Positions 602 to 53,176 of a stretch of DNA of 60,381 nucleotides are shown here, piece after piece (within the stretch, counting starts at the first letter, position 1; each line of letters begins with the position of its first letter). The stretch is from the NCBI GenBank assembly GCA_001783515.1, contig MFMN01000004.1, positions 1 through 60,381 of the forward strand. The letters are read 5' to 3'. The translations under genes and the position numbers were made by a program. The notes below the pieces were generated by a model. That model ran no database searches, was not told where the DNA came from, and saw nothing but the letters and a program-made list of their open reading frames with translations. The DNA comes from Candidatus Kaiserbacteria bacterium RIFCSPLOWO2_12_FULL_50_10. GTDB lineage: Bacteria; Patescibacteriota; Minisyncoccia; Phycocordibacterales; UBA918.

Positions 602-607
602 TATACT
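602..607 (+). promoter_or_regulatory. -10 box TATACT, 6 nt before pilT ATG (predicted leaderless start)
   Basis: gcTATACTgctcctATG; no SD between box and ATG 614. Confidence 0.5.
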
Positions 608-613
608 GCTCCT

Positions 614-1684: not shown

Positions 1685-1687
1685 CGG

Positions 1688-1807
1688 TTCTTCCAAAATG
1701 AGCGAATTTGCATTGACTTCACAGATGTTTCGTCCTCACCGTACCTAGGTACGGCTCCGGCGAAAATCTGCTCCAGTCAAAGCAACTTCATCTCATTTTG
1801 AAAGAAG
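1688..1807 (+). repeat. Family A long-hairpin repeat, copy A1 (pilT-pilC spacer)
   Basis: ttcttccaaaatgagcgaatttgcattgact...ccgtacctaggtacgg...agtcaaagcaacttcatctcattttgaaagaag. The arms are imperfect inverted repeats, and the element starts 4 nt after the pilT stop. Confidence 0.85.
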
Positions 1808-1847
1808 TACAAGGTAAGGGGTGAGAGAGACCACATTTTAAAATCAT

Positions 1848-5056: not shown

Positions 5057-5078
5057 CGACGGACTTGTTCCCCTTTTT

Positions 5079-5108
5079 GACCCTTCGCATTGCGGAGGGT
5101 CTTTCTTT
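5079..5108 (+). terminator. Intrinsic terminator
   Basis: gacccttcgca-t-tgcggagggtc followed by tttcttt. Confidence 0.85.
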
Positions 5109-5126
5109 GCTGGTGTGCGGAGTCGA

Positions 5127-5155
5127 TTGACATTGCGGTGGTTTCGTGGTTAGAT
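5127..5155 (+). promoter_or_regulatory. Sigma70-type promoter TTGACA-N17-TTAGAT
   Basis: TTGACA 5127-5132 and TTAGAT 5150-5155. Confidence 0.6.
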
Positions 5156-5204
5156 TTCGGTATCTTGTTTTTTTGTTGTGTAATCTCTTACTAGGAGTTT
5201 GAAC

Positions 5205-5939: not shown

Positions 5940-5966
5940 AGCCTTGCGCAATCAGTTCATTTTTTT

Positions 5967-13540: not shown

Positions 13541-13603
13541 CCGTAGTGTCAAAAAATTACCATGTGCATAACTACAAACATTGTGATATATTCAGCAAAA
13601 CGT

Positions 13604-31876: not shown

Positions 31877-32237
31877 TATAATCTGTGCTAGACTCGAATT
31901 GGAGCCAGCAACCCTTACAAGGAAGCTGGACGTCCGACGTCTCGTTCTTTCAACCCACTCAGGAGATTCGCATGGAGAAAACCATGGACAACCGCCGTCC
32001 GATCCACGACCGCAAGCCGCGGATCATCACCGCCGCCATCTGATCGCACCGCTTGGTCAAAGGCAGCATCGTTCCATTCGTGCACTACGAGTGGTCTCAC
32101 AACGCGTCCGAAAGGATACCGCAATGTCCGAAATGGCTCTCGCCTGAATCGCCGCGCCCCAATCTCCCGCCTCCTCAAGAGGAGGCGCCCCCCCAACCAA
32201 CACCCATCGGGTGGGCCGCACGACCGTGCGGCTTTTT
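31877..32237 (+). other. Orphan GC-rich unit: TATAAT, SD plus 23-codon basic sORF (31972-32043), structured tail, strong terminator
   Basis: TATAAT 31877-31882. aggag-N6-ATG encodes MEKTMDNRRPIHDRKPRIITAAI. Hairpin cgcctcctc-aa-gaggaggcg, then terminator gccgcac-gacc-gtgcggc-ttttt (32215-32237). Confidence 0.4.
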
Positions 32238-32274
32238 ACGTGTCTCCACACTTTGTATTTTCTGCATCCTGTCG

Positions 32275-32280
32275 CATAAT
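32275..32280 (+). promoter_or_regulatory. -10 box CATAAT, 6 nt before ATG 32287 (leaderless)
   Basis: cgCATAATaggcgcATG. Confidence 0.45.
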
Positions 32281-32286
32281 AGGCGC

Positions 32287-34545
32287 ATGTCAAAACCATA
32301 CATGTTCACGGCGCTCATTGCACTTATGTTCGTGCTTATTGTGAGTATCGTCCTCCGCTACACCGGCGCAGCTGACGTGTCAACATCCGCAGAAATTGAG
32401 AATACCGCACCAACCGTCGATACCATCCGCTTCTCGACAAGCGCATACGGCGCCGACGACCTCTCGACAAGCGGTATTCTCCCGAACATCGGCGCAGACC
32501 GCACCATTCACATCAACGGTCAAATCACCGACCTCAACGGAGAGAGCGACATCGCCTCGTCAACTCTTTCCCTGATGTTCTATCACAGCGCCGCCACAGC
32601 AGGCTGTACCGAGGACAAAAACGACTGCTACTTCGTCGCGACCTGTGATGCGAATTACACGAGCGGCGACGACACACAAATAGCATACGACTGTCCTGTC
32701 TCGCTCGCCTACTGGGTGGATGCGACTGACAGTGCATCAATCTACGAACCAAACACTTGGCTCGCGGATGTCTTCGTTGAGGATGTGGCAGGTTTGGCGA
32801 ATACCAATACCGCAACCATCGAAGTGAACTCACTTCTTGCGCTCAACCTTCCTGATGGCATCGACTACGGTACCCGCGCGCTCGGCGAGCAGTCATCAAG
32901 TACCACGAACGTCGAAACTGTCCTCACGCAGCGCGGCAACACCAAGGCAGACGTCGAAGTTCTCGGCACCACCATGAGCTGTTCCGCACTCGGTACACTA
33001 CCTATCGACGCACAAGCCTGGTCACTCACCGATACTGACTACGCATCAGGAACAACTCTCACTGGTTCTTTTGTGCCGACACTCCGCAACATCAATCTCC
33101 GCACCGACGACGCAAACGAACTCACCGCAAGCCTCTACTGGAACATCGCGATTCCTGCATCAGGCGTGAAGGGAACATGTACAGGTTCGAATACCATCGT
33201 GATTGTGGCGCAGCCGATCGAACAGGCGCTTCTTCTTGACGGTCGTCTTCAGAATGTGCACTACACAACAGGCACTCGTTCAGGCTTTACCGGCAGCACC
33301 GGAAACTTCATTATTGAAGCAGGAGAAACCTACACGTTCTCAATTGGTGGCGTCACGATTGGTACTATTTCCTATGACAGTATCCCGACCGACCGCTTTG
33401 TATTTCTTCAAGACTTGCTCGGGCTCGCGCGCACCAATACAACAGACACAGGACTCGTGAAGCGCGCGCAGTTTATTCAGTCGCTCGCTACAGAAACGAA
33501 CCTCACGGGAGCTACGGTACTCACCATCCCTACAACGGCACATACACGACTCGGGGAACCTATTGACTTTAGCTCCGTCAGCGATGCTACTCTTCAAGCT
33601 AAGATTGACATTGTCCACAGTGGCAGAACACTGCGCACAGCCACGCAGGCACAAGAGCACATGAACGACACCCTTACCTATGAAGGAGTCGCAAGTAGCT
33701 ACACGGTTACTGCGGTACAGGGCGCAAACACGACGATCTCACCAGCAAGTAGAACCGTCGCAAGCGGCAATACGACAAGCTTCACCGTTTCCGCAAACTC
33801 GGGCTACACGCTCTCGGTTTCTGGCTGTGGCGGCACACTCTCAGGCGCAACCTACACAACAGGAGCTATTACTGCAAATTGTACGGTAACAACAAGCGCA
33901 ACAGCGCAAGAGGGCACCATCACCCAGTATGGCACCGTTGCCTACGCGGGTGGTCCGTATGACCAGCTCGGCACCACCAGAAACCAAGGCGGTTATTACC
34001 GAACGGTAACCATCGGTACGCAAACTTGGTTTAAGGAAAACTTGAACCTCGGCACGATGATTACTGGCACCACAAACCAAACCAACAACAGCACTCTCGA
34101 AAAATATTGCTATAGCAATAGCACCACACGATGTGCGAATGATGGCGCGCTCTATCAGTGGAATGAAGCGATGCAATACAGCACAACCGAAGGCGCACAG
34201 GGTATTTGCCCGAACGGTTGGCATATTCCTACCGACGCAGAGTGGAAGACACTCGAAATCTTCCTTGGTATGACGCAGGCGCAAGCAGATGCGACAGGCA
34301 ACCGAGGTACTGACCAAGGTACGAAACTCAAAGTTTCTGGCAGCTCAGGCTTCGACGCCGTTCTTGCAGGCTATCGTGATGGCGCTGGCGCGTTTAACCA
34401 TCAAGCTGCAGGAACACTCATCTGGTCGTCGACAATCTCTGGCGCCAACGCCTGGAGACGAAGTGTCTACACGGGTAATACCACCGTTATTCGCTACACC
34501 GACAGTCAGCAGAACGGCTTCTCCGTCCGTTGTCTCCAAGACTAA
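32287..34545 (+). CDS. Membrane-anchored surface protein with C-terminal Fibrobacter-succinogenes-major-paralogous (FISUMP, TIGR02145-like) domain
   Basis: 752 aa from ATG 32287 with an N-terminal anchor (FTALIALMFVLIVSIVL). The C-terminus has TIGTQTWFKENLN...GALYQWNEAM...ICPNGWHIPTDAEWKTLE...GFSVRCLQD. Confidence 0.8.
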   Translation: MSKPYMFTALIALMFVLIVSIVLRYTGAADVSTSAEIENTAPTVDTIRFSTSAYGADDLSTSGILPNIGADRTIHINGQITDLNGESDIASSTLSLMFYHSAATAGCTEDKNDCYFVATCDANYTSGDDTQIAYDCPVSLAYWVDATDSASIYEPNTWLADVFVEDVAGLANTNTATIEVNSLLALNLPDGIDYGTRALGEQSSSTTNVETVLTQRGNTKADVEVLGTTMSCSALGTLPIDAQAWSLTDTDYASGTTLTGSFVPTLRNINLRTDDANELTASLYWNIAIPASGVKGTCTGSNTIVIVAQPIEQALLLDGRLQNVHYTTGTRSGFTGSTGNFIIEAGETYTFSIGGVTIGTISYDSIPTDRFVFLQDLLGLARTNTTDTGLVKRAQFIQSLATETNLTGATVLTIPTTAHTRLGEPIDFSSVSDATLQAKIDIVHSGRTLRTATQAQEHMNDTLTYEGVASSYTVTAVQGANTTISPASRTVASGNTTSFTVSANSGYTLSVSGCGGTLSGATYTTGAITANCTVTTSATAQEGTITQYGTVAYAGGPYDQLGTTRNQGGYYRTVTIGTQTWFKENLNLGTMITGTTNQTNNSTLEKYCYSNSTTRCANDGALYQWNEAMQYSTTEGAQGICPNGWHIPTDAEWKTLEIFLGMTQAQADATGNRGTDQGTKLKVSGSSGFDAVLAGYRDGAGAFNHQAAGTLIWSSTISGANAWRRSVYTGNTTVIRYTDSQQNGFSVRCLQD

Positions 34546-36750: not shown

Positions 36751-36912
36751 AAAACTATACGTCTCGTTTTCGAGTGAGACACAGAAAAATCCCCTCCATT
36801 AATGGAGGGGATTTTTCTGAGACCGCGAAGAAAGATTGACAAAAAGGATATACTGTATCCGAACCACCCATCCACAGAAAACTTTATCTTTTCTTTAACT
36901 CGAATAAGTATA

Positions 36913-37263
36913 ATGATGACATTACAAAAAACAACTAAGAACATGTTACTTACAACCAAAAGAAAAGCAATTATACATACGATGCTCGTAGCAGCCCTTC
37001 TGCTCAGTGTCCCCTCGGTCACAAGCGCCGGCGCAAAACCTATAAATGACGGAAAAGAAAAAGTTTTCAAAATGAAGACTCTCGAAGGGGAAGAGCTACG
37101 TGTGTTCAATGAGAAAAAACGCAAAAAAAGAGAAAAACTCCACCTGCGCTGGGAGCAGCAAGCAGCGGAGATGGAGCTACAGCTTAGTGAGATGCGCGCG
37201 CATAGCGCGGTATCAACTCCAGAGTCGATTATTCGGCGCGAAGAAGTTAAAAATAATCCTTAA
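36913..37263 (+). CDS. Small secreted K/E-rich protein, translationally coupled (TAATG) to the giant ORF
   Basis: 116 aa from ATG 36913 with signal-like IIHTMLVAALLLSVPSVTSA. Its stop TAA 37261-37263 shares one base with ATG 37263. Confidence 0.5.
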   Translation: MMTLQKTTKNMLLTTKRKAIIHTMLVAALLLSVPSVTSAGAKPINDGKEKVFKMKTLEGEELRVFNEKKRKKREKLHLRWEQQAAEMELQLSEMRAHSAVSTPESIIRREEVKNNP

Positions 37264-40200
37264 TGTTTATGAATATTTTTTTCCGCGTGTTCTTATATGT
37301 CTGCATACTAACGGCAGCAGGCGTTGCGCCACTTGCATACGCTGACACCTACGTAAATAGTCCAGTTGTTGAAGATACTTTATGGCCTCTTGAATTTAGC
37401 CCCTATATTGTTGATGACGTGACTATCGTACAAGGTGCAACACTCACTATTGAACCGGGGGTTATTGTAAAAGTTGCAAAAGGGAAGATAGCATTTGATA
37501 TCGAGGGCGAACTCGTTGCAGGATCTTCCACAGAACCGGGACGTGTTGTTATCACCTCGATCAATGACAATACGTTTGGCGGCACCGCTGCGGGAAGTAC
37601 AGGAGCGCCAAAGGCTGAAGACTGGCTCCGTATTGTGGTGAATCAGGGTGCTTCTGCGCAGTTTTACAATACGGACATAAAGTACGGTGCAGGCAAGCTA
37701 GCATACGTGAACACACTTATCTATAACGACGGAGGTTCTGTTGCCGTGAGAAACAGCACACTTGCTTTTGCACCTTCTGGCATTATTGTGCAATATGGGA
37801 CTACTTCATCGCTTGTCCTTGAAGACAGTATAGTAAGCTCTGGTCCCTCGTTTGGGTACAATCCTGTTCATGTGGGCGGAGGAAGCGCTGTTGTTCGAAG
37901 GAATACTATTACTGCAAACGAGGGGGTCGGGTTTTGGGGTAGCTCACTTACATTTGGAGACAATACCTTCTCGGTAAAGTATCACGATCAGGGGAATGCG
38001 CTCTATCATTTTTCATCAACACCTCTCATAAACGAAGGAGGAAACAGCGGGGAAGGGTCAATCCATATTAACTATGGAAAGGGCTGGCAGAACGACTGGT
38101 CTCTTCCGCAGGACGGTCTCTCGTATCATTTTGGTGCAGATATGGTTGTGCCGAGTGGTGTACATGCATCCATTGCGAGCGGAGTACGTGCAAGAGTAGG
38201 CAATAGCATTGTGGTTGCAGGAGAATTGCAGCTTGGTACTCAAGGTGCCTCTGAGGAAGTCCTTTTGACCTCAATGTATGATGATGCTGGCATGGGCCGA
38301 GAATTTTCAAGCAAAGAACCTGCACGAGGGAACTGGCGGGGTATTTCGGTTAGCCCCGGAGGAACACTCAGCGCCTATGCAAGCACCATTAAGTATGCGG
38401 GGAAGGATAAGGATCAGAATATTATAGATGAATGTGAGTATCTTCTCGTTGAATTGGGTGTGACTGATTCACAGTGTGAGGACGAGTATTGGTGGAAAGC
38501 GGCAATTCGCAATGATGGCGGCATGGTATTTCTCGATGATGTTACCGTTGCAGAGAGTGTCACCAACGGGATTCGAACGGAATCAGGGGTGACCGCAATC
38601 ACGTACAGCACCTCAACGGATAATACACTCTCGGGTGTCTTGACAAATGGTGGAGACACAAACGTTGCTTACTCGTCGCTTGTGAATAACGGTCGGTATG
38701 CCATAGAAAACACCGACGAAACATCCGCGCTCGTAGCGACAGATAACTGGTATGGTGACAGCAGTGGACCATATGAACCTTCCGCGAACCCCTCAGGAAC
38801 GGGTGCTGAAGTAAGTCAAAACGTGAGTTACAACCCTTGGCTGAGCGAGCCTGCTCCGTATGGTTACACATCGGGAGGTGGAGGAGGTTCATCAGGCGAA
38901 GACTCTGAGATGATTACTCTGGAGGAAGACACCACTTGGTCTCTCGCAGAAAGCCCGTATGTACTCAGCAGCGATGTGCTTATTGCCGAAGGCGCAACAC
39001 TCACCATTGAGCCCGGTGTTGTTGTTAAGAGTGCTCGGAAGCAGGACGGGTCGCTCAGCGGTTTGTATGTATACGGAACACTTCAAGCTATCGGCTCTGA
39101 GCAAGATAAAATCTACTTTACTTCAGCACAGGACGACCTCGGAGGCGATTCAAATGATGACGGAGCAGAATCATCTCCAAGTGCTGGAGACTGGCTTGGT
39201 ATTGAGCTGTATGAAAATGGGGTGGCGCAGCTTGCGTATACGCACGTACAGTATGCAGGCGTAGGAATTTCTCTGTATGCAAGCACCACAAGCACCATTG
39301 CAAGCAGCACCTTTCGAGCAAATGAATCCAGCGGACTTGAGCACTATGAGGGTGTCACGAATATCTCACATTCAAATTTCCTCGACAATGGAACATTCGG
39401 CATACATGCCAGTGGACAAGGTGTCGTAAATGTGACAGGCAGCACCTTCGCAAACAACACCAACGGAACGCTTGATATTGATACGTTAAGCGCTGTGCAA
39501 GTGAATGAATCAGGAAATATCGGTCTAAACGTGCCAACATTCGTGACTGAGTACACCATTGCAACAAGCACTGTATGGACCGCAGCACATAGCCCTTATG
39601 TGCTCACAGAAAGTCTTACAATTAACCAAAATGCTACACTTACCATAGAACCAGGCGTAATCGTTAAAAATGGACTTGATCACACTATTGACATCTATGG
39701 CACACTGAACGCGGTTGGCACATCAGATAACAAAATCTATTTCACATCGCTAGAAGATGATATTGGTGGAGATACAAATAACGACAGCAATCAAACACTG
39801 CCTGCGCCAGGACAGTGGGGTGGCATTACAGTGAATTATTCTGGAATATTAAGAATAATTGATGCTGAGGTCAGCTATGCCGATGTTGGTATTGCTCAAC
39901 ACGGTAGTTCTACTATTTCAGACAATATCATTAGATCAGCATCTAATATGGGTATTATCCATGAATCTGGGACAACAACTATATCTGGCACGAGTATAGT
40001 CGGAGAGAGTGTGAGTGACATGGTTGCTTTGGGGGAAGGAGAGATTCGTATTAATTCCGATTTCTATAATAATGGTGAGTTTGGTTTTTCAACATCTATA
40101 AGTAATATAAATACTGACCTTAAGGCATACTTAGTTGATGATAGTGATGTAATTTTGGCAGAAATTCTAGGAGGTGTAGTTACAAATGATATGGTTCTCC

Positions 40201-43200
40201 CAAAGATTAATGTGCCATATCTTATTGATAGCCTTACAATTCAGGAGGGCAGTAAGCTTACAGTTCAACCTGGAACGGTCATTAAGGCGTTGCCATCTAA
40301 TATAAACGGGGCGTACACGTTGTTTGTTAATGGCGTATTAAGTGCAGTGGGTACCGAGCAGAATAAAATTTACTTCACCTCGTTTGAGGACGATGTTGGC
40401 GGTGATACAAATAACGATGGGAATGCAACAACTCCAGTAGAGAATCAATGGAAAGGGATTCGGATGTATGAGGATGCATCATCTGCAGTTCTCAACCACG
40501 CTGTGGTGCGTCACGCCTTGGTTGCATTATACATGGCGGACAATCCAGGAGTGCTCACTGTTCGAAACAGTACCTTCGAATCAAACCTTTGGGGAATGCT
40601 AGGTATTCAAGATGATGGTGATGCCACCATTAGAAATTCAAATGTTGTTAACGATAATGCTCTCTATGGAGTGAACCTATATAATAACGCATCATCCACT
40701 GTTGATGCTCGCAGTAACTGGTGGGGAAGCGCTTCAGGACCATACCATGCTACACTAAATCCTGACGGAACAGGAAATGTTGTCACGGGTAACGTTATCT
40801 TCACTCCCTGGCTTACTGCTCCTGCAACAGGGGATTATGTCTCAGAATCACCGGCAACGACAACACCTCCAGTAGCAACAACAACCGCGACAACCACGCC
40901 AACCTGTACTGAAAACTGCTACTCAAATGTCCTGTTCCTTCCGGGGATTATGGGGAGTGACTTGTACAAGAGTGACGGCACTCAGTGCTGGGTGCAAGAC
41001 ATGAATCATATCGGCGACACAGACTACGATTGTGTACGTATGCTTGATGCAAATACCCCGAATACAGCAGGAGTAGTTACCCGCGGTGTTGCAGAATATG
41101 CCTCAAATAAACCATATGAGGAGATCGAAGCCAGCATGGCAGCGTGGCAAACTGAACTCGGCATAACAGCAACAACTACACCGTACGACTGGCGATATGA
41201 CTTTAACCATATAGTGCGTTCAGGAACTCTGACAGCAAACGGTATTGACTACAACACAGAGATTGCCAACGGAACACCTGGATACATAGAGGCGCAGCTC
41301 CGTAGTCTTGCCTCATCGTCAAAAACAGGAAAAGTTACCGTCGTTGCCCATTCAATGGGTGGACTTGTTGCAAAAGAACTTATGGATAAAATAGGTTCTG
41401 CAGACACAGCAAATCTTGTTGATCAAGTAATCCTGGTCGCAACACCACAACTCGGAACACCGAAAGCGGCGGGTGCACTGCTGCATGGTGCAGGCATGGC
41501 GCTCGGACCTGACTATTGGACAATCCTCACCGAAGCACAGGCACGTGGACTTTCGAAAGATATGCAAGGCAGTTATAATCTGCTTCCAAGTAATGAATAC
41601 TTCGCAAGTGTTTCTGACCCAGTGCTTATTATGAGTACGACTACAAACAGATATATGTGGACGCCGGGTGGCGACTACATAGGAGCAACAACCCTTTCTG
41701 GAGACAGTACACTGGCAAATAGGTATGGTGCGACAGTTACAAGTGTGTCTGCACAGTCTGGCTTTATGACTGACAGTTCACGCGAAGCCCCAACGTTTAG
41801 TAATGTTGCTATTCCTGAAATAGCAAACAGTACGTATACGTCTCGTGCAAACACTGTGCATAATTCACTTGATGCGTGGACGCCACCTGCAGGGGTGAAG
41901 CTTATTGCCGTTGCAGGCTGGGGACTTGAGACCTTTCACCAGTTTACCTATGCACGAAATGTTGAAGAATCTTGTGATGGCGGTATATGCACCACGACTC
42001 GTGAATACCTTACGGTATCGCCAGATACCACTATTGATGGTGATGCGACAGTGGTGGTGCCAAGTGCTTTGTATTCTAGTGGGAGTTCGAATGTTGAGAG
42101 GTTTTGGTTGGATTTAAATGTTCCTCTGAAGGAGCATTCAGATATATTAGCCGCTGATTCACTCCGAACACTCATAAAAAACAAACTCACCGCAACAAAT
42201 CAATCATTGCCATATATCTACACTTCTGCAGCAAACCTTCCTGCTACTACCACAAAGCGTCTTCAGTTCGTGCTCCACTCCCCGCTCACTCTCGGCTACC
42301 GGGACATCAACGGCAACTACACCGGACTTAAGGAAGACGGTACCGTAGAATACACTATCCCCGGAGCACGATACGAACGCTTTGGAGAAGTACAGTGGCT
42401 ATCCGTTCCTGCAGATATCGGTGGCGGACTCGAAATGGTCGGAACAGATGATGGAATATTTACGCTTGAAGTGCGAGAAAAGCACGGAAACGAACTCAAA
42501 AAGCAGGTAAACTTTGCCTATGTAGATACCAAGAAAGGAATGAGGGTGACGTTGCCGTTTGCACAGAAGGAGAAGAAGGTGCAAAATGTAAAAATGCAGA
42601 ATATATCTGAAATTGATACGGAAACAGTCACCGAATACCTCGAAATTACTGTTGATAGACATGATGGAAAGTTAGAAAGAATACAGACAAGGGAAAAGAA
42701 GTTGAAAGAAAGAAAGCAAGACATTAGAGAAGCAACAACAACTCCGAAAGTCATTAGTCCTGGTGTTGCTACAACAGCACCAGAAGCCGTGACAGGCATT
42801 GAAGAATCATTAGTTGAAGAAACCTCTAGTAGTACTTCTGATGTTCCGAATCAGGACATGTCAACCACAACGGAGACTGTTAATCTAGAGGAGATTGCAA
42901 CATCAACAACCCCTATTGAAACAGATAGACAAGGAACGAGCACATTGCCAGTTTCTTCTGGATTACCACATTCGATCCTATTCCTCGCATATACCCTACC
43001 TTTATTGCGGAGGAGAAAGATAGAAATTAGTGAGATTAAAAAAAACCTGACGATAGTATTGTTTCTACTCTCTCTTCCATATATATATATATCATGGAAA
43101 ATTTATCTTTCTGGAATAGATATGTCCTTTTCATGGCTTCTCGGTATTGACAGAAATTTACACCCTACACTTGCTGAAACTGTTGAGTGGACACTCATGG

Positions 43201-43451
43201 CTCCTCTTATTATGTTCTTCTCTTTCGTCCCATTCTACTTCACCTCCGATAAAATATACAAAATCTGGCTCTGGTGGAATGCAGCACATGTTATCTTTCT
43301 AATAGTGAATGTCGTTGGCTATAACCCCCATGCATTTATGTTTGCAGATATAGGCTTCACCTTCCAGTACCGTCTCTACGTCGCTGGCTCGCTATTGCTG
43401 TTGTGCGCAGGCATAATACTTGGCATAATCCATAGATTCAAAAAATCATAA
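37263..43451 (+). CDS. Giant secreted protein (2062 aa): signal peptide, parallel beta-helix repeat modules, LCAT-like alpha/beta hydrolase, sorting-signal-like anchor, polytopic C-terminal extension
   Basis: Signal peptide ...APLAYA/DT. Four TLTIEPGV(I/V)VK...KIYFTS..DD.GGD.NNDG modules and two NWWG...GP....P.G.G..V...V...PWL motifs. Hydrolase motifs FLPGIMGS, PYDWRY and AHSMGG. Confidence 0.9.
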   Translation: MFMNIFFRVFLYVCILTAAGVAPLAYADTYVNSPVVEDTLWPLEFSPYIVDDVTIVQGATLTIEPGVIVKVAKGKIAFDIEGELVAGSSTEPGRVVITSINDNTFGGTAAGSTGAPKAEDWLRIVVNQGASAQFYNTDIKYGAGKLAYVNTLIYNDGGSVAVRNSTLAFAPSGIIVQYGTTSSLVLEDSIVSSGPSFGYNPVHVGGGSAVVRRNTITANEGVGFWGSSLTFGDNTFSVKYHDQGNALYHFSSTPLINEGGNSGEGSIHINYGKGWQNDWSLPQDGLSYHFGADMVVPSGVHASIASGVRARVGNSIVVAGELQLGTQGASEEVLLTSMYDDAGMGREFSSKEPARGNWRGISVSPGGTLSAYASTIKYAGKDKDQNIIDECEYLLVELGVTDSQCEDEYWWKAAIRNDGGMVFLDDVTVAESVTNGIRTESGVTAITYSTSTDNTLSGVLTNGGDTNVAYSSLVNNGRYAIENTDETSALVATDNWYGDSSGPYEPSANPSGTGAEVSQNVSYNPWLSEPAPYGYTSGGGGGSSGEDSEMITLEEDTTWSLAESPYVLSSDVLIAEGATLTIEPGVVVKSARKQDGSLSGLYVYGTLQAIGSEQDKIYFTSAQDDLGGDSNDDGAESSPSAGDWLGIELYENGVAQLAYTHVQYAGVGISLYASTTSTIASSTFRANESSGLEHYEGVTNISHSNFLDNGTFGIHASGQGVVNVTGSTFANNTNGTLDIDTLSAVQVNESGNIGLNVPTFVTEYTIATSTVWTAAHSPYVLTESLTINQNATLTIEPGVIVKNGLDHTIDIYGTLNAVGTSDNKIYFTSLEDDIGGDTNNDSNQTLPAPGQWGGITVNYSGILRIIDAEVSYADVGIAQHGSSTISDNIIRSASNMGIIHESGTTTISGTSIVGESVSDMVALGEGEIRINSDFYNNGEFGFSTSISNINTDLKAYLVDDSDVILAEILGGVVTNDMVLPKINVPYLIDSLTIQEGSKLTVQPGTVIKALPSNINGAYTLFVNGVLSAVGTEQNKIYFTSFEDDVGGDTNNDGNATTPVENQWKGIRMYEDASSAVLNHAVVRHALVALYMADNPGVLTVRNSTFESNLWGMLGIQDDGDATIRNSNVVNDNALYGVNLYNNASSTVDARSNWWGSASGPYHATLNPDGTGNVVTGNVIFTPWLTAPATGDYVSESPATTTPPVATTTATTTPTCTENCYSNVLFLPGIMGSDLYKSDGTQCWVQDMNHIGDTDYDCVRMLDANTPNTAGVVTRGVAEYASNKPYEEIEASMAAWQTELGITATTTPYDWRYDFNHIVRSGTLTANGIDYNTEIANGTPGYIEAQLRSLASSSKTGKVTVVAHSMGGLVAKELMDKIGSADTANLVDQVILVATPQLGTPKAAGALLHGAGMALGPDYWTILTEAQARGLSKDMQGSYNLLPSNEYFASVSDPVLIMSTTTNRYMWTPGGDYIGATTLSGDSTLANRYGATVTSVSAQSGFMTDSSREAPTFSNVAIPEIANSTYTSRANTVHNSLDAWTPPAGVKLIAVAGWGLETFHQFTYARNVEESCDGGICTTTREYLTVSPDTTIDGDATVVVPSALYSSGSSNVERFWLDLNVPLKEHSDILAADSLRTLIKNKLTATNQSLPYIYTSAANLPATTTKRLQFVLHSPLTLGYRDINGNYTGLKEDGTVEYTIPGARYERFGEVQWLSVPADIGGGLEMVGTDDGIFTLEVREKHGNELKKQVNFAYVDTKKGMRVTLPFAQKEKKVQNVKMQNISEIDTETVTEYLEITVDRHDGKLERIQTREKKLKERKQDIREATTTPKVISPGVATTAPEAVTGIEESLVEETSSSTSDVPNQDMSTTTETVNLEEIATSTTPIETDRQGTSTLPVSSGLPHSILFLAYTLPLLRRRKIEISEIKKNLTIVLFLLSLPYIYISWKIYLSGIDMSFSWLLGIDRNLHPTLAETVEWTLMAPLIMFFSFVPFYFTSDKIYKIWLWWNAAHVIFLIVNVVGYNPHAFMFADIGFTFQYRLYVAGSLLLLCAGIILGIIHRFKKS
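37374..40535 (+). repeat. Four diverged copies of a ~110-aa beta-helix module inside the giant ORF
   Basis: Modules start near 37374, 38925, 39565 and 40175. Each has SPY(I/V)(V/L/I), ATLT(I/V)(E/Q)PG, a G(T/E/V)L.A.G segment, KIYFTS (VVITS in module 1), DD.GGD.N.D and W.GI. Confidence 0.8.
40917..41520 (+). other. LCAT/PGAP1-like alpha/beta-hydrolase (lipase/acyltransferase) domain of the giant ORF
   Basis: FLPGIMGSDLY, YDWR (41184-41195) and the nucleophile elbow AHSMGG (41346-41363; Ser codon 41352-41354). Confidence 0.75.
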
Positions 43452-43615
43452 TCTCCTCAATACTCATAACTTTCCTCCTCCAAGGCCCCCACCCCTCGGC
43501 TATCGCGACGCAGACAGCAATCATTCGGGCGCAGCGACAGACTAAAAATTGAGCTTAGCACCCTAGGTTCGCAAGACAGACGCAATGGAGAAGTAAAGGA
43601 GATATGAGTCCGAAG
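43452..43615 (+). pseudogene. Degenerate duplicate of an internal segment of the giant ORF (homologous to ~42210-42445), with stop codons
   Basis: aactttcctcctccaagg...ctcggctatcgcgacgcagacagcaatcattcggg...cgcaatggagaagtaaaggag corresponds to aaccttcctgctactacc...ctcggctaccgggacatcaacggcaactacaccgg...cgctttggagaagtacagtgg. Confidence 0.65.
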
Positions 43616-43644
43616 AAACAGGATGCGTCAGCGTCCTGTTTTTT
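43616..43644 (+). terminator. Intrinsic terminator
   Basis: aaacaggatgc-gtca-gcgtcctgtttttt. Confidence 0.85.
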
Positions 43645-43763
43645 GTGTTGTTTTGAGCAGATGATGCGGGTTTACTCGCTGGTTATCCACAGATAGTTTT
43701 CTTTTGGGGTGGGGTATACTTGGGGGTACATTACCTATTTAGTATTATTTAATTTTAGAAATT

Positions 43764-46760
43764 ATGAACGTTCTACGAAACATCCTTGCGCTCACACTTA
43801 TGCTTAGTGCGACCCTTGGCACCAGTGCTTTTGCAGCAAATGCGGAAAGTATTGATCCGCGATTCCCGAATGATCACGTCATCGACGTTTCTTCAGACGA
43901 GGCGGTTGCGAATCTCACTCCTGAGGAAATCGCTGCTATCGAGGAAGAGTTTGGTCCGCTCGCACCAGTTGCCGCAAACGCTGGTCCTGCGTGTTTTGAC
44001 TATTACCGCTTTAACTCGGTGCAGGTCATCGCCGGTGCAGAGCAGCAAGACCTTGTGCCGGGCATCCCGCTTGCACTCGTTGGCTCGATTGTCAACGAAA
44101 ATGCGTATCCACTGAGCGATGTGCAGGTGTACGCAAAGGTATTCAAGCTAGATAGCGCACGCACAGAAGCGAACGTGCTCGCAAACGGAAATCCTGTTGT
44201 AGATTTCGTCCAAGTTGCTGACGACGTCACGCTTCCCGCAAACGGCGAGCTTCCCTTTAGCTACAGCTACAAGCTGCCCCATGCAATGGAGGCAGGGAAG
44301 TATCGTATCGCGTTCTTTGTGACCGTTGCCGAGCGCTACAACATGCTCGGACTCACCTTCACCGACGACGTGATTGGTAACGTCACTGATTTTTCTGTCA
44401 CCGCAGCAACGAGCCCGGTACCTGCATTTGATAAGGATTCCGTAACACTTAACGGCACGCCATATAACTTCGCAAGTTTCCCACCAATCTTCGAGAAGGA
44501 CGAGCAGGTTGTGATGACTGCAAAACTCGTGAACCCGCTCGCTGAGGAGGTTTCTGTTACGCTCACGCATAAGCTCTATAGTTGGGATGCTCTTCGCGAG
44601 GAAACTGTCCGCGATAGCGTGACGGAAGTCGTGAAGCTCAAGCCTCGCGAGGTACGAACGGTGTCATACACGGCAACCGCTGCCGACTCGACATCGTACC
44701 TCATGACAACCGCAACCTACAAGGATGCAAAGTCTATCATTGCGCCACGCTTTGGACGCAGTGGTCTTGAGGATATGCGTATCAACTTCCCGGGTATTAC
44801 AAGCTACCCGCTCCAGGCTGGTGTCGAAAATACGCTCTTCTCATGCGTGCATGCAATTGATACAACCGTGAAGGATGCAACCCTTACCCTTACCCTCACA
44901 AGCCCTGAAGGCGCAGTGCTCCACACGTACACCTACTCAGGCGCGGTTACTGGCGCAATGATGGCTGCTGCGGACAAATTTACACCAACAGCAAACTACA
45001 CCGACTTCGACCTCACGGCAACACTTACGAAAAACGGCACTGTTGTCGAATCGGTAACCATTCCGTATCGCTGCGCGGTCCTCGATGCCTCACTCTGTCC
45101 CGAGCCAGAAGCGCCGGCGCCTGTCGTTGAAATTCCTCTCAATACTATGATTATCATCGGACTCATCGTTCTCGCGCTTGTCTTGGGGCTCCTCCTTATC
45201 TGGGGATTGCGCAGGAAAAGCGCACCGACAACACTCATGTGTCTTATCGGTGTCGTCGGTATTGGTGTGCTCTCACTGCACGTAAGTTCAGGTTTGGCGC
45301 TTGAAGTACATACCTCACAGCACGCATTTACCACAAACTACCTTGCGCAGTCATCAACGCATAAGTCGGTGATTACCCAGTCAGCACCAGTTGCCGTCAA
45401 TCGTGTCTTTGGTAATGCGTACCTGGTGAATGTTGTCTCTGCAAATGCTATCTACCGCGCAACGGTGTCCCAGCCAGAAGGTACGGTGATTCAGAATTCT
45501 GCAATTGCCGTTGGACATCCTCGCACGAACGAAGAAACAAGTTGGTATCAAACAGGGTCGCGTGGCGACACGCCGTACGGCTGCTGGTCTGATATGCGCT
45601 GGGGACGTTGGAATTGTACGAACGAGCTCATCTTCTCACAGCCAACCCTGGGGCGACGCCAATTTGGGAACGTATTTAACGTACCGTCGGTAACGGTACA
45701 GGGAACGGGCTCAATAAGTTGTAGCGGCAACAACTGTACGGCAAGCGGCCTTGGTGCAGGAACTATTCGCCTTGACTATGCACAAAACGTTTCGACGGCA
45801 TCGCTCTATCTCCCTAAGAGCGACAGGAAATTCATTGTTGCGTATATCCCACTTCCTGCAAAGACGATTGTCTTTAACTACAATGTCGTTACGCCAAACC
45901 AGCCACCAACAACACCTGTAGTTACCTCGTCACAGTGCGGAGCAAGTATTGTCGAAGGAACGAGTGTAAATCTCTCTATGCGTGCAACCGATCCAAATAA
46001 CGATCAGCTTCGCTATCAGATTGCATGGTTAGGTGGTGGTGTAGTGAATGAAAACGTTCCTGCAAGTGGCTATGTACCAAGCGGCACCGAAGGAAAAGCG
46101 TCACGTGTCTTCGACACAGCAGGTACCTACCCGATTCAAACTCGTGCACAAGACAACCGAGGCGGCGTCTCTGCATGGAGTAACTGTACCGTAACAGTGA
46201 CCGCTGCTCCTGTGGCGCCAACGCCGTCAGCCTCAGTTCCGCCAACAGTAACCCTTACGGCAAGTGTAGATAATGATTCATTTACGGAAGCAAACCGGAC
46301 CATAGATGTTGGCGACGTTGTACGTCTCCAGTGGGATGGAGAGGATGCAGATACTTGTACCTCATCTGATTTCACCACAGGGGGCGCAGTGGACGGCATT
46401 GATCCAAATGTTGTTGAGCCAACGCTCGGCACAAGTAAGGTCTACACCGTTACGTGTACTCGCGGTTCAGAAACAGCCTCCGACACTCTTACCATTACCG
46501 CTCGCGGCAACGCACCAACACTTACCCCGAACGACCTCGTGGTGAAGGCAGGAGGACGCACCGTGATCGCGTACGACCTCAAGGGTAATACAGAGTGTAC
46601 CTTTAGCAGTGCCGACACCGCCTTCAGTGGACTTTCGGTAACTCAAAACGGCACTAAACAAACAGGCGCTCTCAGTAGTGCGACACGATACATCCTCACC
46701 TGTGAAGGTGGCATCGCAACCGCCATCATCAATGTGACAGGAACTATCATCGAACAATAG
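43764..46760 (+). CDS. Large surface protein (998 aa): signal peptide, central TM hairpin, PKD/Ig-like C-terminal domains
   Basis: Signal peptide ...GTSAFA/AN. Two mid-protein TM segments, IIIGLIVLALVLGLLLIWGL-RRK and LMCLIGVVGIGVLSL. Motif DPNNDQLRYQIAW...GTYPIQTRAQDNRGGVSAWSN. Confidence 0.85.
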   Translation: MNVLRNILALTLMLSATLGTSAFAANAESIDPRFPNDHVIDVSSDEAVANLTPEEIAAIEEEFGPLAPVAANAGPACFDYYRFNSVQVIAGAEQQDLVPGIPLALVGSIVNENAYPLSDVQVYAKVFKLDSARTEANVLANGNPVVDFVQVADDVTLPANGELPFSYSYKLPHAMEAGKYRIAFFVTVAERYNMLGLTFTDDVIGNVTDFSVTAATSPVPAFDKDSVTLNGTPYNFASFPPIFEKDEQVVMTAKLVNPLAEEVSVTLTHKLYSWDALREETVRDSVTEVVKLKPREVRTVSYTATAADSTSYLMTTATYKDAKSIIAPRFGRSGLEDMRINFPGITSYPLQAGVENTLFSCVHAIDTTVKDATLTLTLTSPEGAVLHTYTYSGAVTGAMMAAADKFTPTANYTDFDLTATLTKNGTVVESVTIPYRCAVLDASLCPEPEAPAPVVEIPLNTMIIIGLIVLALVLGLLLIWGLRRKSAPTTLMCLIGVVGIGVLSLHVSSGLALEVHTSQHAFTTNYLAQSSTHKSVITQSAPVAVNRVFGNAYLVNVVSANAIYRATVSQPEGTVIQNSAIAVGHPRTNEETSWYQTGSRGDTPYGCWSDMRWGRWNCTNELIFSQPTLGRRQFGNVFNVPSVTVQGTGSISCSGNNCTASGLGAGTIRLDYAQNVSTASLYLPKSDRKFIVAYIPLPAKTIVFNYNVVTPNQPPTTPVVTSSQCGASIVEGTSVNLSMRATDPNNDQLRYQIAWLGGGVVNENVPASGYVPSGTEGKASRVFDTAGTYPIQTRAQDNRGGVSAWSNCTVTVTAAPVAPTPSASVPPTVTLTASVDNDSFTEANRTIDVGDVVRLQWDGEDADTCTSSDFTTGGAVDGIDPNVVEPTLGTSKVYTVTCTRGSETASDTLTITARGNAPTLTPNDLVVKAGGRTVIAYDLKGNTECTFSSADTAFSGLSVTQNGTKQTGALSSATRYILTCEGGIATAIINVTGTIIEQ

Positions 46761-50622: not shown

Positions 50623-50686
50623 GTCTTAAGACTGCGTGAACAAAGAACAGCTAGAAAGGCTGTTTTTTGATTTCTGGAAAACAGGG

Positions 50687-50692
50687 TATACT
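50687..50692 (+). promoter_or_regulatory. -10 box TATACT, 6 nt before ATG 50699 (leaderless)
   Basis: gggTATACTgtgcgtATG. Confidence 0.5.
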
Positions 50693-50698
50693 GTGCGT

Positions 50699-53176
50699 AT
50701 GAATTTGAATGGAGGTTTAGGCGCGCGGCGGATCAGCTCGTTCGCAGAGTTACGCGTAAAGGCGCAGGAGCAGCAGGATGCGCTCAAAAGCGTAGCGCCA
50801 GTTATTTCGTCACCGCTTATGCGCGCGCCGACACTTACCGAAACGGTGTCGCCGCAGGGTGAGCCTGCACAAAGCACAGCAGAAGCGCCGCGTATTATGT
50901 CGCCGCTACGGAGCGAGGCTGTTTCTGCGGAGCCTGTTATGGCAGCCGAAACAACAACAGAAGACGTTGTCGTTCCTGCTTCAGAAAGTGAGCCAGTTGT
51001 TGCAGAAGAGGCACCTGTTGCAGCGCCGGAAGTTGCACCCGATATATCAGTGACACCAGTAGAAGTTCCAGAAGCGGCGGAGGTAGTGGATGCAGAAAAA
51101 GAGGTGGAAACGGAAACTGAAGGAGTAACATTCGAAACCCTTGTCGCAAGCGCCTATCAGGTAGACGCACCAGAGTTTTCTCGTGCGGCAGAGCAGCTTG
51201 CACTGAGTCTTACGGGGCGGCTTGATCGCCATGCGTACTACCTCGATAGGCTTCGCATAGCCGCAGAAGGGAATGCGCGTCGTCAGCGTGAAGTAGAAAT
51301 GTTCCAAGCTCGCGCAGAGCTCCAAACCTCGCTCGGCGATAGTGTACGAAGTTTCTTATACATGCTCGCGGGAAGTACTGGCGAAGCGCTCCCTAAGCCA
51401 GAAGTACTTGCCACGCAGCGTAAAATCGCAACCGAGCTTGCGGGCTATCTAGAAAAAGACAGCGAACGCATCGCTGCACGGCTTAGTGAATGGGAGTCGT
51501 CAGAACCAGTAAAAAAAGGAGAGCTCATTGCTCCAAAGGAAGTGGCAGAGGTGCCGCCGGTCGCCGAAGCGACTCCCGAAGAACTTCCGAAAGGTCCTGA
51601 AGATGTCGCCTACGAAAGTCTTACGGGGGATTGGAAGACAATACGCGAAACGTATGAAGAAGGGGAGCGCTCATACCACGAAGCGCTTCGCGCCGAGCTT
51701 GCTGCACAGGCAAAAAGCTGGAACCCGCTCAAATCAATTCCGTATGCCGCACGAAAGATGTTTGGTTTCAACCAGAAACTTTCTGGAGAACTCGAGAAAC
51801 GAAAAACAGAATCGACCGCAAACGCAATACTCTATCGTGACGCCTCAAACGCGCTTGCTGTAGCAAAGCGAGATGCGCTCATGCATAAATTTGAAGGCGT
51901 AGCTGCTCCCGAGGAAAAAATGCAGACACTTCTCCAGCGTCACGAACGCATGCTTGGGCGGAAGCTCGTGCTTTCGCGTGCGAAGGAGCAACTTGCCGCA
52001 ATGCAAGAAGCGCCATCGCTCGCCGAGCATCCACGTATGCAGAAAGCTCTTGAGGTTCTGCAGAACAATAAGTGGAAGGTTATGGCAGGCAGCGTTGGCA
52101 TCGCTGCGCTTACCGGGGGACTTCTTCCGGTGCTTGCTGCTCTAGGCACAGGCGTTGCCGTGCGTGCCGGACTTGGCGAAAAAATAAAGTCGCTTCTTGA
52201 GCGGAGCAAAAACCGTGCGAGCGCAGAGAACGTTACTGCGCAGTGGCGGGAGCGACTTGGTTACCTCTCGTATGACGAGCTTCTTGCAACAGCAGAGCGT
52301 GCGCTCGAAAAAGTGGCAATGGCAGAAAAGCATGCAAGCTACACCAATCTTGCAGCATTCGGTGCCGCAGCAGTAGCGGGAGGTGCATTTGCTGGTGCGG
52401 GGCCAAACCTTGCAGACTATGCGGAGCATATGCCGCTTGAGAACTCCGTGCAAGCTGTTGTGGCTCCTGAGGCGCCTGTCACACTTCCTACTCCCGAAGT
52501 AAGTGCTCCTGCAGAGATTGTGCTCGCGCCAGAAGCTGTCGCTACTCCGGAGTACGTACCTACTGCTCCAGTAGAAGTAGCAGAAGTGCCGCCAGTAGAA
52601 GTCGCCCCCGCAGTGGCGCCGCTTCCTGAACCTGTACACATGGAGGCGCAAGAGGTACCTAGTGCTTCTTCCGAGATTGAGGTCGCACCAGCCCCTGTTC
52701 CTGAGAGTGTGGTGACTACAGAGTACGGTGTGCCAGTACAGGCTGAGGGTGGCTACCTCACGACTGCAGGTGCAGGAGAAGAAGTTGCAAACAGCGTACC
52801 GGTCGCCGAAGCGATGCCGGTTGCGCCGCAGCCTGCTCTTGAAGGAACACCACTTTCTCCAGCAGTTGCGGAGACCATCAAGAACATCGAAACCTTCAAT
52901 GTGGAAAAGCCAGGCTTCCTCGGTATGTTTAGTTCGAATGAGCTGCAGACAACGGGTGGTGAAGTGTATGCCACTATGAAGGACCTTACCCTCGACGATA
53001 TTGCAAAAATTTATCAAGATCCTGTCACTCGGGCTGAAGTATTTCCGAATGGGGTGAGTCCAGAATCCCTTGAACGATGGGTGACGTGGATTCAAGAACA
53101 TAACACACAGGAAACGCCTGCGTATGTGAATCTCAAACTCGAAGACTTTGTAACCACAGTGCACCGAGCACACTAA
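50699..53176 (+). CDS. Large P/E/V/A-rich low-complexity protein with central TM segments, unknown function
   Basis: 825 aa from ATG 50699 with PEVAP/VEVPE-type low-complexity blocks at both ends and hydrophobic segments GSVGIAALTGGLLPVLAALGTGVAV and LAAFGAAAVAGGAFAGAG. Confidence 0.75.
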   Translation: MNLNGGLGARRISSFAELRVKAQEQQDALKSVAPVISSPLMRAPTLTETVSPQGEPAQSTAEAPRIMSPLRSEAVSAEPVMAAETTTEDVVVPASESEPVVAEEAPVAAPEVAPDISVTPVEVPEAAEVVDAEKEVETETEGVTFETLVASAYQVDAPEFSRAAEQLALSLTGRLDRHAYYLDRLRIAAEGNARRQREVEMFQARAELQTSLGDSVRSFLYMLAGSTGEALPKPEVLATQRKIATELAGYLEKDSERIAARLSEWESSEPVKKGELIAPKEVAEVPPVAEATPEELPKGPEDVAYESLTGDWKTIRETYEEGERSYHEALRAELAAQAKSWNPLKSIPYAARKMFGFNQKLSGELEKRKTESTANAILYRDASNALAVAKRDALMHKFEGVAAPEEKMQTLLQRHERMLGRKLVLSRAKEQLAAMQEAPSLAEHPRMQKALEVLQNNKWKVMAGSVGIAALTGGLLPVLAALGTGVAVRAGLGEKIKSLLERSKNRASAENVTAQWRERLGYLSYDELLATAERALEKVAMAEKHASYTNLAAFGAAAVAGGAFAGAGPNLADYAEHMPLENSVQAVVAPEAPVTLPTPEVSAPAEIVLAPEAVATPEYVPTAPVEVAEVPPVEVAPAVAPLPEPVHMEAQEVPSASSEIEVAPAPVPESVVTTEYGVPVQAEGGYLTTAGAGEEVANSVPVAEAMPVAPQPALEGTPLSPAVAETIKNIETFNVEKPGFLGMFSSNELQTTGGEVYATMKDLTLDDIAKIYQDPVTRAEVFPNGVSPESLERWVTWIQEHNTQETPAYVNLKLEDFVTTVHRAH

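Follow-up and report, generated by a model that had tools for sequence, protein, structure and literature searches.

An LCAT/LPLA2-fold surface hydrolase with a putatively fused four-helix membrane partner in Candidatus Kaiserbacteria, and its possible role in lipid acquisition

The Candidate Phyla Radiation (CPR), or Patescibacteria, accounts for a large share of bacterial diversity. We analyzed a stretch of 60,381 nt from one of its members, Candidatus Kaiserbacteria bacterium RIFCSPLOWO2_12_FULL_50_10 (contig MFMN01000004.1 of assembly GCA_001783515.1, positions 1 to 60,381; hereafter the window), which carries an open reading frame (ORF) of 2062 codons without an internal stop (37263..43451, + strand; all parts of this ORF described below lie on the same strand). 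A reading made from the letters alone, hereafter the sequence-only reading, had seen in this ORF a surface protein that joins beta-helix modules to a lecithin:cholesterol acyltransferase (LCAT)-like domain and had supposed that it attacks or scavenges host membrane lipid. The locus raises the question of whether such a protein could serve the lipid supply of its producer. CPR bacteria are reported to have ordinary acyl-lipid membranes despite lacking fatty-acid and phospholipid synthesis and to be rich in lysolipids, which a phospholipase A could generate (PMC7242380). Their dependence on lipids has been described, together with the statement that the mechanisms of lipid uptake and breakdown are still unidentified (PMC11665869). 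In Vampirococcus, a secreted phospholipase was proposed to act in host-lipid acquisition (PMC8080830).

We propose, with a probability of roughly 0.55, that the ORF encodes a Sec-exported, membrane-tethered surface phospholipase A or transacylase that acts on host membrane lipid and has its membrane partner fused to it. The fold of the enzyme and its placement at the cell surface are well supported; from these we infer what the enzyme acts on, in which direction lipid flows and what the partner does, together with the role in host-lipid harvesting and the functionality of the fusion.

An alpha/beta hydrolase of the LCAT/lysosomal phospholipase A2 (LPLA2) fold was delimited at residues ~1215–1660 (40905..42242) using Pfam, a 60-sequence alignment, an AlphaFold2 (AF2) model, Foldseek and a profile alignment. 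The domain starts with a CxxxC motif, and the three motifs named in the sequence-only reading were found at residues 1225 (FLPGIMGS), 1307 (PYDWRY) and 1362 (AHSMGG, 1362–1367). The Pfam LCAT model (PF02450), whose cut-off is 21 bits, matched residues 1286–1598 over profile positions 66–352 of 392 with a score of 50.4 bits (E 2.6e-13), which provides the lipase-family match on which the earlier LCAT/PGAP1-like assignment depended. The PGAP1 part of that assignment fell away, as PF07819 remained sub-threshold (21.1 bits against 24.3) and its match was confined to ~50 residues around the nucleophile elbow. In the alignment of 60 sequences, in which 59 members were 23–52% identical to the focal domain over 566 residues, the invariant columns (n = 60) included FLPG (1227–1228), Y1308/W1310/R1311, H1363/S1364/G1366/G1367, G1593/D1594 and H1625. 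The candidate catalytic triad would accordingly consist of Ser1364 (nt 41352–41354), Asp1594 (nt 42042–42044), which lies in a DGDATV motif at 1592, and His1625 (nt 42135–42137); the spacing from Asp1594 to His1625 is 31 residues, compared with the LCAT family criterion of ~32.

The AF2 model of the hydrolase was predicted with high confidence (predicted local distance difference test [pLDDT] 89.4, predicted template modeling [pTM] score 0.91). A structural comparison of these residues by AlphaFold and Foldseek, which had been suggested as a check, returned LPLA2 and LCAT as the best matches in the PDB. LPLA2 ranked first (E 9e-13, target template modeling [TM] score 0.64–0.69), followed by LCAT (E 1e-10 to 2e-8), the Pseudomonas type VI effector Tle4 (E 1.3e-9) and Bacillus lipases; the LPLA2 and LCAT matches had a probability of 1.00 over about 470 columns, and weaker matches included cell-wall-degrading esterases. 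In a profile-versus-PDB search, PYDWR, AHSMG and DGDxTV fell on the same motifs of LPLA2, with Ser1364 aligned on LPLA2 Ser165 and Asp1594 on LPLA2 Asp327, while the correspondence of His1625 with LPLA2 His359 rests on spacing and the whole-domain Foldseek match. By sequence profile the best PDB match was Tle4 (E 1.6e-5), with FxPGIMG(S/T) and HSMGGL in common. A single-sequence search of the hydrolase against the PDB gave noise only, and profile and fold searches were needed. Together, these results place the domain in the LCAT/LPLA2 family by sequence, profile and modeled fold.

The hydrolase is followed by a beta-sandwich with the motif RLxFxLHSPL (residues ~1661–1766; 42243..42560), which was recognized from conserved columns and from an AF2 model whose residues 461–562 are all-beta. 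This sandwich accompanies the hydrolase in every one of 80 homologous loci (80/80), and the focal protein shares the co-linear hydrolase, the RLxFxLHSPL beta-sandwich and the CxxxC-SNVLFLPG start with a large Patescibacteria family. At least 333 homologues of residues 1205–1770 were found, with 31–50% identity over 78–99% of the query among the 120 listed, and the named homologues were all Patescibacteria (Kaiser-, Nomura-, Morani-, Pace-, Minisyncoccia). GTDB species representatives contained 545 matching stretches, the best 80 of which were titled nearly all as CPR; automated labels such as "Bdellovibrionales" and "Saccharibacteria" are probably unreliable. An exhaustive profile search returned 2,917 representatives of 50%-identity clusters at E ≤ 1e-30 and 5,931 at E ≤ 1e-10.

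The conserved core of this family consists of the hydrolase and the beta-sandwich, and most members have no beta-helix. The sequence-only reading knew of no characterized protein with the domain order of the focal protein; however, the combination of a beta-helix with the LCAT-like domain recurs in the homologues P0002–P0008 and in 15–25 of the 80 related loci. A clear hydrophobic C-terminal tail is present in only 5 of 76 family members. Some members bear the NCBI label "lipase/acyltransferase domain-containing protein", and several C-terminal types recur among the loci L011–L090, namely a ...PGMVVP...G.V.V.Y domain, a ...QQYIYNWSTKGL..GYWYR...VGLR domain and an amphipathic ...AVYNGLH.LW..L...F helix. 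The closest homologue (locus L091; GCA_018060865.1, JAGOVH010000014.1, 1–13280; NCBI label Candidatus Moranbacteria) is 50% identical; there, gene callers place the beta-helix part in a gene of its own, upstream. Downstream (3') of its hydrolase lies a gene for a 203-residue membrane-anchored beta-sandwich paralogue, and no four-helix gene of the type described next. The closest homologue P0067 was also considered as a bridge to the fusion described below and was rejected, as its cluster mate P0216 has the beta-sandwich paralogue downstream and not a four-helix gene.

Clustering of all ORFs in the 80 loci revealed a sole conserved neighbor, a protein of 125–160 residues encoded directly downstream on the same strand. 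When the 73 homologous loci with enough downstream sequence were searched with a profile, this partner gene was on the same strand in 69 and adjacent in 67, and at least five loci had two tandem copies of it. Four helices are predicted in the partner; its first outside loop contains a Cys pair, its second is rich in Gly, and helix 2 is followed by a conserved segment ...Y(K/R)M(R/K)(D/E)EVF(R/Q)AW...; no Pfam or NCBIfam model matched the family. The next most frequent neighbors, an ATP-binding cassette ATPase, GT4, an epimerase, a flavin adenine dinucleotide oxidase and TspO, each occurred in at most 10 of the 80 loci.

In the window, no separate partner gene was found 3' of the focal ORF; rather, the ORF itself continues as a four-helix segment of the same length and in the same place. 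By hydropathy the last ~165 residues of the protein are membrane-spanning, a feature absent from the sequence-only reading. Translation and composition show a charged helix and then a Thr/Ser/Glu-rich spacer after the beta-sandwich (residues ~1767–1897; 42561..42953), for which no homologue was found across the 80 loci. Translation and motifs then indicate a short hydrophobic anchor helix, LPHSILFLAYTLPLL, with an RRRK stop-transfer sequence (residues ~1898–1919; 42954..43019), and a hydrophobic tail with a basic end comparable to this anchor occurs in a few family members, for example at loci L031 and L037. We also considered a sortase signal in this part ("LPHS...RRRK") and rejected it: the segment LPVSSGLPHSILFLAYTLPLLRRRK contains no LPXTG and is not terminal, as 143 residues follow. 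These residues form the C-terminal four-helix membrane domain (1920–2062; 43020..43448), which was assigned from a hidden Markov model (HMM), shuffled sequences, hhalign and its position.

The partner-family HMM gave the C-terminal segment 21.1 bits with the composition correction off, a score that none of 500 composition-matched shuffles reached (maximum 16.2, z = 5.9) and that was higher than for any ORF outside the family, whether from the loci or from the window. When 340 other proteins were scanned, scores were obtained only for the focal protein and its own fragment (12–16 bits compared with ≤1.7). hhalign of the C-terminus against the partner family gave P = 0.005–0.008, yet a probability of 3–5%. 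In a MAFFT alignment, the segment was co-linear with the partner across helices 2–4 with the invariant Trp matched, at 9–21% identity. Its length, helix number and charge pattern match those of the partner family, and on direct reading its charges follow the positive-inside rule.

The junction bears possible marks of a former gene start as well. The RRRK codons, CGGAGGAGAAAG, are Shine-Dalgarno-like (GGAGGAG), and the following EIKKNLTIVLF resembles the N-termini of standalone partners such as MTKKNVLLISF, which share a KKN(L/V) start; the junction-spanning peptide of the focal protein reads ...LPLLRRRKIEISEIKKNLTIV.... The topology would also fit a fusion, in that the extra anchor helix returns the chain to the cytoplasmic side, the predicted site of the standalone N-terminus. 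The sequence similarity is thus weak but specific, and together with the position and the topology it suggests that the C-terminal domain is probably a diverged copy of the partner fused in frame to the hydrolase protein.

The same junction (43009–43086) contains, besides GGAGGAG, a run of eight A (A8, 43043–43050) and a (TA)7 run (43071–43086) and is prone to slippage. Loss of one A from A8 would lead immediately to an in-frame TGA (...EIKKT-stop), and these tracts sit at a point where fused and unfused forms could be switched. No variation in tract length was visible at the junction in the assembled contigs.

At its other end, the protein has a signal peptide at residues 1–27 (37263..37343) with an AYA–D cleavage-type site, as judged from a hydropathy scan and from reading the translation. 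The N-terminus, MFMNIFFRVFLYVCILTAAGVAPLAYA followed by D, is the sole strongly hydrophobic stretch before residue 1900 and reads as a Sec export signal; the cleavable signal peptide of the sequence-only reading is thus supported by inspection and hydropathy.

The next ~1200 residues hold the beta-helix modules, which the sequence-only reading had recognized but counted as four. Pairwise BLASTP and MAFFT gave five head modules (residues ~30–150, 270–385, 548–665, 762–870 and 968–1085), with module-to-module E-values of 1e-39 to 6e-6 and module 2 the most diverged, and these are arranged in two capped arrays. Array 1 holds modules 1 and 2 (residues ~30–150 and ~270–385; 37344..38867; alignments, motifs and Pfam Beta_helix) and ends in a cap, NWYG...GP...PWL (residues 495–527, with NWYG at 495 and PWL at 525). 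Array 2 holds modules 3–5 (from ~548, ~762 and ~968; 38904..40832; alignments, motifs and AF2 model) and ends in NWWG...GP...PWL (residues 1152–1184, with NWWG at 1152 and PWL at 1182). Two caps had been claimed and two are present, but the first reads NWYG rather than NWWG. TLTIEPGV occurs at residues 60, 579 and 792, KLTVQPGT at 998, and KIYFTS at 616, 824 and 1035. A Thr/Pro-rich linker identified by translation and composition scan (residues ~1191–1214; 40833..40904) leads to the hydrolase.

Pfam Beta_helix (PF13229), with a cut-off of 25.9 bits, matched four stretches and scored 50.0 bits. For residues 546–1205, the AF2 model (pLDDT 76.8) shows three all-beta solenoid modules of ~200 residues each, built from short regular strands and separated by low-confidence linkers; the protein would thus resemble separate beads on a string and not the single long beta-helical stalk that had been envisaged. 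The best fold matches of residues 546–1205 were weak (E about 1e-3, TM ≤0.3) and comprised Ag43, AlgG, a GH87 glucanase, PL6 lyases, RbmB and phage tailspikes, and no catalytic signature of a lyase or epimerase family was identified in the beta-helix region. The head module "TLTIEPG...FTS..DD.GGDTN.DG" and the "NWWG..GP" cap are also found in large surface proteins from many other phyla. Since they are paired there with quite different effector domains, they appear to be a generic extracellular module, and in the focal protein they may be adhesin-like or glycan-binding.

The reading frame on which this architecture depends is the same wherever it was seen. The identical 2062-residue product occurs in 24 contigs from NCBI (GCA_001781255.1), JGI, ENA and Logan assemblies, and the DNA of the ORF was 100% identical in all ten contigs fetched (10/10). 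The identical copies rule out a sequencing error; all of them come from one clonal population, and the exact frame is therefore without independent evolutionary support. The sequence-only reading had named a split of the ORF in other assemblies as the observation that would speak against it, and the ten contigs show none. One apparent split, P0001 (1278 aa, SRR3990167_5646805, from a read-level protein assembly), was rejected as a fold-back chimera because the minus strand at this very locus codes for its tail, GHLSSSFQYR. P0001 is the representative of the focal protein's 90% cluster in a large protein collection and, being chimeric and truncated, makes searches of that collection blind to the C-terminal 800 residues of the real protein.

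The source data are Rifle aquifer data sets. The sequence-only reading had allowed for an episymbiotic small-genome bacterium, and the organism is a host-dependent, small-genome member of the CPR/Patescibacteria, Candidatus Kaiserbacteria. The longest contig with the focal protein measures 652,728 bp, and the GyrA and ribonucleotide reductase of the window cluster at ≥90% identity with those of Candidatus Kaiserbacteria bacterium RIFCSPHIGHO2_02_FULL_49_34. Ordinary housekeeping genes are found in the window (SecDF, GyrA, DnaE, LeuRS, MetRS, GroEL, FtsW and NusA), and the G+C content of the focal ORF (0.44–0.49) is below that of its flanks (0.52–0.55).

According to the reading that we favor, the protein would be ordered, from its far end inward, as five beta-helix modules, the Thr-rich linker, the hydrolase, the beta-sandwich, the spacer, the anchor helix and the four-helix domain. 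The beta-helix modules would grip the surface of a neighboring (host) cell, and the hydrolase, acting as a phospholipase A or a transacylase, would cleave or transfer acyl chains of host glycerolipids. Lysolipids and fatty acids would then be freed at the contact site and could be used by a cell thought to be unable to make lipids. On the producer's side, the membrane partner would be the dock for the enzyme; it might in addition shield the membrane there or take up the products. A docking role is attractive because, in most of the family, the hydrolase protein has no anchor that would hold it in the membrane, and the apparent fusion in the focal protein supports a physical association of hydrolase and partner.

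Several points weigh against this reading. The substrate and the type of reaction are deduced from fold similarity at 14–17% identity. The beta-helix is present only in a minority of the family, so host contact through these modules would not be general. Tandem copies of the partner look more like immunity genes than anchors. The C-terminus scores below the default HMMER filters against the partner HMM and has no Cys pair, and no other fusion was seen among ~300 family proteins or the 80 loci. Since the copies come from one clonal population, the fusion could be recent and possibly reflect neutral loss of a stop codon. Finally, we know of no host for this organism.

The tandem copies bring up the alternative that the pair is a toxin with its immunity protein, in which an antibacterial phospholipase destroys membranes, the four-helix protein protects the producer and any gain of lipid is incidental. 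This is the main alternative and is unlikely, although it would fit several of the observations: Tle4, which was solved with Tli4 (4r1d), is among the top fold matches and the best profile match, sharing (V/L)(I/L)F(I/L)PGIMG(T/S) and HSMGGL with the focal hydrolase; a small gene on the same strand immediately follows the hydrolase gene in 67 of 73 loci and is duplicated in tandem in at least five; and small polytopic membrane proteins are the usual immunity to membrane-acting bacteriocins. A covalent fusion of toxin and immunity protein would be unusual, however, and is better explained by a docking partner. The protein carries a Sec signal, the window showed no type VI genes, and so large a family in bacteria that reportedly do not synthesize lipids suggests a core function in their physiology. 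Killing and feeding are compatible in an epibiotic parasite, so this alternative overlaps with the harvesting of host lipid. Less probable still is that the enzyme works on the outer leaflet of its own cell, re-acylating scavenged lysolipids by transacylation or trimming diacyl lipids to lysolipids against curvature stress in a very small cell. LCAT/LPLA2 members are acyltransferases as well as hydrolases, and both the tether to the membrane of the producing cell and the presence of a conserved membrane partner would place the enzyme suitably; moreover, a high lysolipid content has been attributed to CPR cells (PMC7242380). Our analysis does not separate acyl donor from acceptor. Against self-directed remodeling, a spacer of ~130 residues and 1200 outward-facing beta-helix residues suggest a reach away from the own membrane, and the clear hydrophobic tail that would tether the enzyme there is confined to the 5 of 76 members mentioned above.

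An esterase for a non-lipid polymer of the host surface (an acetylated or acylated polysaccharide of the cell wall, a polyester or a teichoic-acid ester), with beta-helices that bind or cut glycan, seems the most improbable of these alternatives. The beta-helix region does recall AlgG, PL6 alginate lyases, the GH87 glucanase, RbmB and phage tailspikes, GxSxG alpha/beta hydrolases span many substrates, and cell-wall-degrading esterases are among the weaker fold matches; but these beta-helix matches are the weak ones given above, most family members have no beta-helix, the Pfam match is specifically to LCAT, and the lipid enzymes LPLA2, LCAT, Tle4, BlEst2 and family I.5 lipases match better by several orders of magnitude. 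A further doubt concerns the C-terminal 143 residues alone, which might be no more than a polytopic anchor of other origin, or the translation of what used to be an intergenic or neighboring region, the locus then being among the ~5% without a partner. The failure at HMMER default thresholds, the hhalign probability of 3–5%, the missing Cys pair, the low identity (9–21%), the lack of any other fusion and a search of 5.8 billion proteins that returned no homologue of the domain, which also matched no Pfam or NCBIfam model, would all be expected in that case. We nevertheless regard an unrelated origin as doubtful, as the segment outscores the 500 shuffles and all non-family natural sequences tested, aligns co-linearly over helices 2–4 with the invariant Trp, has the length, four-helix layout and charge pattern of the partner family, sits where the partner gene lies in 92% of loci and is preceded by what appear to be relics of a ribosome-binding site and of the KKN(L/V) N-terminus.

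The host-lipid reading can be extended, tentatively, to the whole family: the hydrolase/four-helix pair might be the missing lipid-acquisition system of Patescibacteria, with an LCAT-like transacylase at the surface that removes acyl chains or lysolipids from the host membrane and a dedicated partner that imports them into, or shields, the bilayer of the epibiont. On this speculative extension the fusion would be a natural "Rosetta stone" for one physical unit, and the A8 and (TA)7 tracts might conceivably switch between fused and unfused forms. The family is a candidate for the lipid supply of Patescibacteria in that it would be extracytoplasmic, has the LCAT/LPLA2 fold with an invariant candidate triad, counts thousands of members and is in nearly all loci accompanied by one membrane partner, and phospholipase A action would yield lysolipids directly. 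If the toxin and immunity alternative were true, epibionts would possess in this pair an antibacterial weapon that is Sec-dependent and widely distributed. In both cases, a large block of CPR surface proteins now called "hypothetical" would gain a function.

The genes around the focal ORF showed little conservation. Directly upstream is a small ORF (36802..37263, + strand; 153 aa from the first ATG, 93–153 aa depending on the caller) with a hydrophobic signal or anchor segment and then a K/E-rich helix, which matched no Pfam or NCBIfam model. As had been reported from the letters, its stop codon overlaps the start of the focal ORF in TAATG at 37261–37265. Downstream, a hairpin of 14 pairs with a T run (43613..43654, + strand; stem 43613–43644), 162 nt after the stop codon, resembles an intrinsic terminator and would end the transcription unit before the gene for a 998-residue protein (43764–46760). 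The spacer between the two genes (43452–43763, 312 nt) also contains a possible 32-codon ORF from ATG 43605, preceded by AAGGAG and overlapping the hairpin; an Rfam scan of the window returned two tRNAs only. The 998-residue protein has a signal peptide, two adjacent mid-protein hydrophobic helices (~460–510) and, in its C-terminal half, a PKD match. It had been called PKD-like, and the match exists but is weak (14.2 bits against a cut-off of 23.5, E 0.045), and no family was assigned. The FISUMP-domain protein of the sequence-only reading corresponds to Fib_succ_major at 32053–34545. The type IV pilus motor genes are present too, as two T2SSE ATPases and T2SSF at 4–3056, but about 34 kb away.

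Conserved synteny of the block formed by the upstream ORF, the focal ORF and the 998-residue gene had been suggested as a check; the upstream ORF and the 998-residue protein were near none of the 80 homologous loci (0/80). In tblastn searches of these loci with the upstream ORF and the 998-residue, Fib_succ_major, 846-residue and 131-residue proteins, nothing was found save one marginal match. A linkage to type IV pili was likewise rejected, as only 2 of the 80 loci, and in addition L091, have T2SSE/T2SSF in the vicinity of the hydrolase. At L091 the hydrolase gene is surrounded by a type IV pilus cluster, in which T2SSE and T2SSF are joined by two pilin-like genes and a gene for a prepilin peptidase. 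When the window (27000–47500) was compared with a sister Kaiserbacteria genome (L092–L094; GyrA ≥90%), the interval from L7/L12 to Lactamase_B_3/GyrA contained wholly different genes in the sister, namely those for an AI-2E transporter, a Kelch protein, RNase HII, ScpB, a penicillin-binding protein, MraY and FtsW. This difference indicates that the segment with SecDF, Fib_succ_major, an Na/H exchanger, the focal ORF and the 998-residue gene is rearranged and variable. Elsewhere in the window, the leucyl-tRNA synthetase (13562–16408, 948 aa) has a NUDIX match (E 1.8e-8, residues 389–507) just after its editing domain, an unusual insertion. The ORFs at 50636–53176 (846 aa) and 5037–5951 (− strand, 304 aa) matched no Pfam model, and the former is kept next to gyrA in the sister genome (846–856 aa).

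Among known systems, the one closest in proposed role is the phospholipase of Vampirococcus lugosii, a secreted enzyme with which a lipid-auxotrophic CPR predator would degrade host phospholipid and supply itself with lipid. The passage with this proposal concerns one Absconditabacteria gene and names no family for it, and it describes no link to an LCAT-like family, a beta-sandwich or a membrane partner (PMC8080830).

Right-handed beta-helix proteins (Ag43, AlgG, PL6, tailspikes; PF13229) resemble the N-terminal 1200 residues, which score above the Pfam cut-off and have a beta-solenoid model. Unlike them, the focal protein is not an autotransporter and has five short modules on flexible linkers in place of one helix. 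The secreted Bacillus lipases BlEst2 (6wpx) and family I.5 (5ce5, 4fdm) have a related alpha/beta core (Foldseek E 1e-6 to 3e-4) and match less well (target TM 0.36–0.39 for 6wpx, 5ce5 and 4fdm). They are single-domain enzymes without adhesin modules, a beta-sandwich or a membrane partner, whereas the focal protein has all of these. Tle4/TplE with Tli4 (4r1d) is a bacterial phospholipase of related fold that acts against the membranes of other cells and has a cognate small protein encoded next door. Tle4 lacks a signal peptide and is delivered by type VI secretion; its immunity protein Tli4 is soluble and resides in the periplasm. The focal protein, in contrast, has a Sec signal and a polytopic membrane partner, which here appears to be fused to it; membership in the type VI Tle4/Tli4 system was rejected on these grounds and on finding no type VI genes among the neighbors or in the window.

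LPLA2 (PLA2G15; 4x90, 4x97) and LCAT (5txf, 4xwg) are the best folds (E 1e-12 to 1e-8, target TM 0.58–0.69) and share with the focal hydrolase the motif order PG...(Y)DWR...AHSMG...DGDxTV...H. They are hydrolases or transacylases of membrane glycerophospholipids. Compared with them, the focal enzyme is only 14–17% identical, is bacterial (CPR), lies inside a 2062-residue surface protein with beta-helix modules and has an obligatory beta-sandwich, a membrane tether and a four-helix partner, with no sterol or ceramide context. A limited literature search returned no report of the scale of this LCAT-like family or its association with CPR, the beta-sandwich, the four-helix pairing or the fusion, and papers joining Patescibacteria with LCAT were only unrelated gut-microbiome studies. 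The fold of the enzyme and the idea of CPR phospholipases acting on hosts are thus already known; given that limited search, what appears to be new is the scale of the family, its obligatory beta-sandwich, the near-universal pairing with a membrane protein and the apparent natural fusion of the two.

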